Source: Escherichia coli
Lineage (GTDB): Bacteria > Pseudomonadota > Gammaproteobacteria > Enterobacterales > Enterobacteriaceae
Strand: one strand, 5' to 3'
NCBI RefSeq assembly: GCF_016026235.1
Contig: NZ_CP065613.1
DNA: 64,000 nt
Of this stretch, positions 29,880 through 31,284 are shown piece after piece. How positions within the stretch are numbered: the stretch's first letter is position 1; every line of letters begins with the position of its first letter. Both the position numbers and the translations under genes were made by a program. The notes under the pieces are model-generated. The model did no database searches and was not told the DNA's origin. It saw only the letters and a list, made by a program, of their open reading frames with translations.

Positions 29880-31284
29880 TCAGGAAGGAAATGCGAGTGA
29901 TTTCACCGTCACCGGCACAACCGATCCGCCAAAAAGAGGCGTACCAATGTCGATATAGTCCCCCGCGCGGACAATCACTTCGTCAATGACTGCCAACGGG
30001 AGTTGTTGTAGCTGTGGGCGCAACAGCATGCCCAGAGCTTTACCAAAGTCCTGCCCGGCCACCACCAGCAGGGGATGCGGATTCGGAAAACGCGCGACGA
30101 AATCGACCAGCGCGTTGATGACCGTCAGTACCGCGGCGTAACGCACAGGCAGCGAGGCGGGAAGCGCCAGCACGTACGCGTCAGTTTTGGGATCAAGATC
30201 CAGCTGAATCAGCGCCTGTTGCCAGGCACCCACCAGATCCGTTTCATCAATCGGGATCGCCACCGGCAAATTGCGCAGCGGCAGTTGTACGCCCTCCAGC
30301 CAGATTGTGCTGCCAGAGAGCGAAAGGGTATGTGCACCCGCGCCAATCACCGTGGCGCGTACGGTTTGCGCCGGAAACTGCACGTTCATCTCACGCAGGC
30401 GCGGATGGTCATGCAGCGCCGTTGCCAGAAGCGGACCAATATCGGCAAAACAGAACGGGTCGGCGGGCTGGTGGCGATAACATTCGCCCACGCCGCCAGA
30501 AAGCGTAATGATTTCGGGCGTAACACCTGCGGGCAGCAAACCGGTTTGCATTAATGCCTGCGCGAGCGGCGAAAGCGTTCCGTCAATCACTTCGACAATC
30601 AGCTCTGCCATCCGCCGGGTAACCTGCACCAGCTGCGCGCCGGTCAGCGAACGGACGTCAGTGCCTGCACCGAAGCACTCATCCACAATCATCTGCCCCG
30701 GTTTATGAGCGTAAACCACGCGCCCCTGGCTGTCGGTTTCCAGCAGGCGACCACCGACGTTGAGGCAGGCAGTGCCGCTTATTTTTCCGGCATCGAACAG
30801 ATGCGTAGTTCGCGGTGCCACCGCCGATGTCGATATTCAGTACCCGACACAGCCGTTGTTCAGAAAGGGTTTGCGCCCCGGCACCGTGACCGGCGATCAC
30901 GGATTCGAGGTGCGGCCCGGCGCTGGCGACGACAAAATCGCCCAGCGACTGAGAGAGCGCCATCACCGCCGGGCGAGCATTGCGGGTTTTCGCGCTTTCA
31001 CCGGTGATGATGATGGCACCAGAATCAACACTTTCCGGCGCAATGCCCGCAGCCTGATATTGCTCTAAAATCAGCGATTTCAGTTCCGCTTCTTTTAAAC
31101 CACCCTGTTTATCGACAGGGGTAAAGAACACCGGGCTTTGCCAGCTAATTTCGCGTTTGATGAATTCGTAGCGCGGCACCTGCGACACCGCCGCACGGTT
31201 AACCAGTTCCAGGTGGGAGAAAATCACCTGGGTGGTGGTGGTGCCGATATCGATACCGACGCTCAGTAGCTGGCGAGTGTTCAC
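29880..31284 (-). pseudogene. eutA: eutA (ethanolamine ammonia-lyase reactivase) with apparent +1 frameshift near 30801
   Basis: N-terminal frame (start 31284, MNTRQLLSVGIDIGTTTTQV... to ...IDIGGGTANYA) and C-terminal frame (...LFDAGKISGTACLNVGG... to stop at 29880) lie in different frames; they overlap at 30703-30821, with one extra nucleotide in aactacgcaTctgttcgat. Confidence 0.75.

Follow-up and report, generated by a model that had tools for sequence, protein, structure and literature searches.

The eutA gene in a 64 kb stretch of Escherichia coli DNA (hereafter the window) carries one additional base, after which the reading frame is lost and a premature stop codon is reached. Most probably this is a genuine and recent 1-nt insertion that is inherited in a small clade, and the carriers are expected to have lost the EutA reactivase and, with it, growth on ethanolamine. 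The gene is well known, and its state in the window is that of an ordinary, recently formed pseudogene, for which eutA already offers documented precedents. As such it reveals no new mechanism or system and adds one case to the natural lesions found at eut in E. coli.

A single inserted base splits eutA into two reading frames

The gene is located on the minus strand between eutH (31284-32507) and eutB (28507-29868), which is the position expected of eutA, and is read there as two overlapping ORFs (30703..31284 and 29880..30821; Table 1). When the intact EutA of strain FDAARGOS_943 was used as a query in tblastn, the match to residues 1-161 (31284-30802) was in frame -2 and that to residues 162-467 (30800-29883) in frame -3. 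Both halves were 100% identical to the intact protein, the GTG start codon excepted. In the first ORF, the native part ends with ...NIDIGGGTANYA and the premature TAA is located at 30705-30703, 32 codons past the frame change. The second ORF holds residues 162-467, which begin with LFDAGKISGTACLNVGG.... An earlier reading made from the sequence only had proposed a +1 frameshift in eutA, with the first 161 residues and the C-terminal part in different frames, and the tblastn frames together with the length of the gene confirm both proposals.

Table 1. Features of the eutA locus in the window.
Feature	Position	Strand	Remark
eutA pseudogene (ethanolamine ammonia-lyase reactivating factor)	29880..31284	-	1405 nt instead of 1404
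Inserted base	30802..30802	-	A on the coding strand (T on +), between eutA nt 482 and 483
N-terminal fragment ORF	30703..31284	-	193 aa; EutA 1-161 plus 32 out-of-frame residues (SVRCRKNKRHCLPQRRWSPAGNRQPGARGLRS)
C-terminal remnant	29880..30800	-	codons 162-467 and stop, open, 100% identical to intact EutA
eut operon, eutS to eutR	25319..40205	-	17 genes, intact except eutA

Whereas eutA measures 1405 nt in the window, all listed matches have 1404 nt; a match was obtained in 5,411 of the complete E. coli genomes in RefSeq. A 76-mer spanning the insertion matched none of the 5,426 complete E. coli genomes at 100%, and a 46-mer carrying it had no match in the species-representative genome collection. 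A length difference that is not divisible by three relative to 5,411 genomes, a premature stop downstream of it and the recurrence of the allele in independent sequence data (see below) together characterise a frameshift pseudogene.

To place the inserted base, we compared the sequence AAC TAC GCT CTG TTC GAT of FDAARGOS_943 with AAC TAC GCA TCT GTT CGA T in the window. The sequence-only reading had taken the extra base to be a T following a GCA codon (30801), which presupposes an ancestral GCA CTG. However, the 75-mer with GCA CTG had no exact match in any genome, while the 75-mer with GCT CTG was found exactly in 8 genomes, and for this reason the inserted base is assigned as the A at 30802. 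Most parsimoniously, the coding strand thus gained an A, by which the ancestral GCT CTG was converted to GCA TCT G. The site lies outside any homopolymer. The protein-level description given earlier is unaffected by this reassignment.

The break falls inside the predicted ATPase core

With the extra base removed, the reconstructed EutA of 467 aa scored 1071.9 bits over positions 1-467 on the NCBIfam model NF007991, for which the equivalog cut-off is 799 bits (the Pfam family for EutA is PF06277). The two fragments remained below this cut-off, with 321 bits for the N-terminal fragment and 662 bits for the C-terminal fragment of 279 aa. The intact EutA of FDAARGOS_943 (WP_001097463.1) occupies the same eutH/eutB locus and is 100% identical in amino acids to both halves; it differs in that the window has the extra nucleotide after codon 161 and that neither of its fragments reaches the family cut-off. 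The window gene is therefore eutA by descent, but a complete EutA is not encoded.

A sequence search of the PDB returned no match to a EutA relative with a solved structure. The fold was therefore modelled with AlphaFold2 using 110 homologues, which gave a mean pLDDT of 92 and a pTM of 0.89. The predicted protein has an ASKHA fold, and Ppx/GppA, MreB, EutJ, HgdC, FtsA, PilM and sugar kinases matched it with a probability of 1.0. In the model, strands were predicted at residues 147-153, 158-164 and 167-174, with the phosphate-binding loop D152-I-G-G-G-T157 between the first two. The frame change after residue 161 is thus predicted to fall in the middle of strand 158-164, in the core sheet of the second ASKHA subdomain and not in a linker.

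The model was built on an alignment for which 2,215 matches to diverse homologues were collected and 109 full-length sequences were placed under the E. coli sequence. All 109 are colinear across the site and have no gaps at residues 150-184. Residues G10, D12, G14, D152, G154-156 and N159 are invariant before the break; G177, G263 and G264, among others, are invariant past it, and G166, G178 and R179 are nearly so. The phosphate-1 (G10-D12-G14) and phosphate-2 (D152-G154-G156) motifs are both carried by the N-terminal fragment, while the GG motif at 263-264, which is probably adenosine-binding, is present only in the C-terminal remnant. The reconstructed protein combines the fold and all these motifs on one chain, whereas the window splits them at 161/162.

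The break might be tolerated if the N-terminal fragment and a re-initiated C-terminal fragment assembled into an active reactivase of two pieces. Restart codons are available in the C-terminal frame at GTG 30821, GTG 30719 and ATG 30692, so that a second fragment may be made. GTG 30719, which is preceded by an AGGGG motif and overlaps the stop of the N-terminal fragment, is the start of the 279-aa second gene predicted by gene callers, and ATG 30692 is located 10 nt past that stop. The 306 C-terminal codons are moreover still open and unmutated, and the remaining operon is intact on all haplotypes. However, the cut is predicted to lie inside a core β-strand instead of a linker, and full coverage could be obtained only from GTG 30821, a codon with an unfavourable upstream context that is located within the translated N-terminal fragment ORF. 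The better-placed starts drop residues 162-194 or more, including the invariant G177 and the nearly invariant G166, G178 and R179. In addition, the protein is a single chain in 109 of the 109 full-length homologues chosen for the alignment. We therefore regard a working two-piece enzyme as unlikely.

Even less probable, and in our estimate barely worth considering, is a ribosomal +1 shift that restores the frame and yields a near-native EutA, for example by a slip of tRNA-Lys on a run of five A residues (GGAAAAATA). A +1 slip on AAA within this run (30781-30777), about 20 nt downstream of the insertion, would regain the native frame before any stop is reached and would alter only LFDAG to SVRCR. 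Against this, the altered stretch would replace the nearly invariant G166, and the shift site is not conserved, since none of the 5,426 complete genomes and none of the aligned homologues has the insertion. No recognised +1 motif was found in GCA UCU GUU CGA, which leaves the downstream A5 run as the only candidate slip site, and known +1 stimulators (an in-frame stop, a rare A-site codon or an upstream SD-like element) were absent. Efficient slippage would require a much longer run than A5.

Expected loss of the reactivase within an otherwise intact operon

Loss of EutA function by the insertion is, in our analysis, very likely, because the modelled break lies in the middle of a core β-strand and directly after the invariant DIGGGT loop. 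The A inserted at 30802 shifts the frame past codon 161 and leads to a stop 32 codons further on, so that the complete ATPase core is present on no single polypeptide. The likeliest re-initiated fragment would lack residues 162-194, among them G177, G178 and R179. As a consequence, EutBC would lose the ATP-dependent reactivase by which its damaged cobalamin is exchanged, and carriers would be expected to grow poorly or not at all on ethanolamine.

It has previously been described that EutA removes the damaged cofactor (cobalamin) from EutBC in a step that requires ATP (reviewed in PMC5821096). A Salmonella strain lacking eutA was unable to grow on ethanolamine as a nitrogen source when EutBC was supplied from a plasmid (PMC9426561). 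From this published biochemistry we infer that EutBC would be rapidly inactivated in strains carrying the insertion, as the earlier reading had also predicted. Polarity of the premature stop on eutBCLK is possible. As judged by base composition, the 834-nt stretch past this stop contains no marked C-rich, G-poor tract of the kind associated with Rho-dependent polarity.

The other 16 eut genes (eutS, P, Q, T, D, M, N, E, J, G, H, B, C, L, K and R) were all full length, ungapped and 99.5-100% identical to those of FDAARGOS_943 in tblastn, which upholds the earlier statement that they are intact. They are likewise intact on all haplotypes with the eutA insertion. This could mean that the operon is still under selection. 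It is equally expected from a recent event, as the haplotypes are only 2-3 substitutions per 12 kb apart, in which case the rest of the operon is intact because there was too little time for further decay. Given a recent event, the intact state of these 16 genes therefore carries little information.

For annotation, strains of the clade should be scored as eutA-defective and as probably ethanolamine-negative or impaired, despite an operon that looks complete. The split eutA should be entered as one pseudogene and not as two genes.

The insertion recurs in independent data sets and on several haplotypes

An exact-protein look-up found the truncated 193-aa product on 21 public contigs. Among the carriers is the NCBI draft GCA_001907545.1, which matches 20.6 kb of the window without a difference; others are an NCBI contig of 4.56 Mb (STM06514.1) and the Logan assemblies of SRR11606891, SRR13627083, SRR13627094 and ERR9828666. 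The 193-aa product is adjoined, in every locus that was returned, by the 279-aa gene call for the C-terminal part of EutA. Overall, five or more independent public data sets contain the insertion, and four or more haplotypes can be distinguished among its carriers.

Between the window and each of three carrying loci (L006, L008 and L009), there are 2-3 substitutions. At positions 31945, 25129 and 23572 these loci keep the base of FDAARGOS_943, while the base of the window is derived; the insertion therefore predates those substitutions. It is inherited within a small, diversifying clade of E. coli consisting of close relatives of FDAARGOS_943. It is also recent, since neither half departs from the intact protein (100% identity) and the haplotypes are separated by only 2-3 substitutions per 12 kb.

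FDAARGOS_943 (NZ_CP065615.1) is the nearest complete genome and is about 99.95% identical to the window, IS elements aside. In the aligned block of 22.8 kb that contains the eut genes, we found 9 mismatches and a single gap, the eutA base. Over the whole 64 kb, and again leaving IS elements aside, the differences amount to about two dozen substitutions, the eutA base and an indel of 3-4 nt in narQ. The latter is located at window position 54227 (ORF 53071-54786), where FDAARGOS_943 has 3-4 extra bases and its gene is annotated as frameshifted, whereas narQ in the window is an intact ORF of 571 aa. We had also considered that the assembly of the window might be error-prone in general; this was rejected, as the sole other small indel is the frameshift of FDAARGOS_943 in narQ.

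A sequencing or assembly error, in which the extra base is missing from the real genome and eutA is intact, is hardly conceivable: single-base indels are the commonest type of assembly error and no complete RefSeq E. coli genome has the insertion, but the same truncated product recurs on 21 contigs, which stem from two assembly pipelines and several unrelated accession series, at least four haplotypes have the allele, the site lies outside homopolymers and the window has no other small indel that is private to it relative to FDAARGOS_943. With these copies at hand, an artefact is effectively excluded. The sequence-only reading had left the choice between an error and a real loss of the gene; the second option is favoured by the five or more data sets and four or more haplotypes, and the first is all but refuted.

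Other natural lesions of eutA in E. coli

An inherited loss of eutA has been reported before. In the tir-255A lineage of E. coli O157:H7, an amber mutation in eutA has become fixed (PMC10758439). The protein cluster of the 193-aa product also holds a product of 185 aa that is named for O157:H7 (P0003/P0013) and one of 197 aa (P0005). The 185-aa product was found on at least 1000 contigs, compared with 21 for the 193-aa product of the window, and corresponds to the published tir-255A amber allele. Like the allele in the window, it is a lineage-specific truncation in the N-terminal third of EutA (after 185 residues versus 161) in strains that otherwise retain eut. Unlike the window allele, it results from a nonsense mutation at codon 186 and not from a 1-nt insertion, it occurs in a different phylogenetic background and it is far more widely sampled.

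The 197-aa product (STI47876.1, from an NCBI genome) resembles that of the window in being a frameshift truncation of E. coli EutA. Its frame, however, changes after residue 188, which marks it as an independent event. Taken together, the sequences point to at least three independent truncations of eutA in E. coli, namely in the clade of the window, in the O157:H7 tir-255A lineage and in P0005.

A further comparison is provided by E. coli K-12, in which the eut operon is interrupted by the prophage CPZ-55 adjoining eutA (PMC11334477; PMC3032704). Both are natural lesions of the eut operon at eutA/eutB. In K-12, however, the prophage is located downstream of eutA and the gene itself is intact, whereas the window has no prophage and eutA itself is broken. 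The gap between eutA and eutB in the window (29868-29880) measures 11 nt and contains no prophage of the CPZ-55 type.

Recurrent truncation could indicate that eutA is a repeated target of inactivation in E. coli, possibly through selection and not through sampling, although we consider this unlikely. If selection were at work, the operon might be useful independently of EutA, for instance in sensing ethanolamine and in regulation, or in scavenging nitrogen at low flux with AdoCbl freshly supplied by EutT. Alternatively, loss of the reactivase might itself be advantageous in some niches.

Repeats, insertion elements and gene lesions around the eut operon

In the intergenic region between eutG and eutH, we found two direct repeats of 83 bp (32540-32622 and 32640-32722) that are 97.6% alike. 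The same region gives spurious mirror-image ORFs, a REP-like feature. The short-read contigs L005, L006 and L008-L010 all stop at these repeats.

Apart from eutA, 38 other flanking genes were compared, and these are intact with the exception of tktB; pdxK is also split by an IS element. The window and FDAARGOS_943 each have a private frameshift, in eutA and narQ, respectively. The lineage of the window is accumulating gene lesions.

The pyridoxal kinase gene pdxK, beside crr, is interrupted by IS4 at 7415-8842, and the same arrangement was seen in 15 complete E. coli genomes. FDAARGOS_943 has a larger IS cluster at this site (ISEc60, ISSso6 and IS66). The gene for transketolase 2, tktB, is cut by an ISSso6-like element of the IS110 family (45131-46631) into parts encoding residues 1-366 and 360-667. 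Because the junction between tktB and the element is covered by no complete E. coli genome, this insertion is specific to the lineage of the window; FDAARGOS_943 has 14 copies of the ISSso6-like element elsewhere. Between ypfG and tktB, the alignment indicates a transposase of the IS3 family, of the programmed-frameshift type, at about 47630-48978, and this element is common to FDAARGOS_943 and the window.
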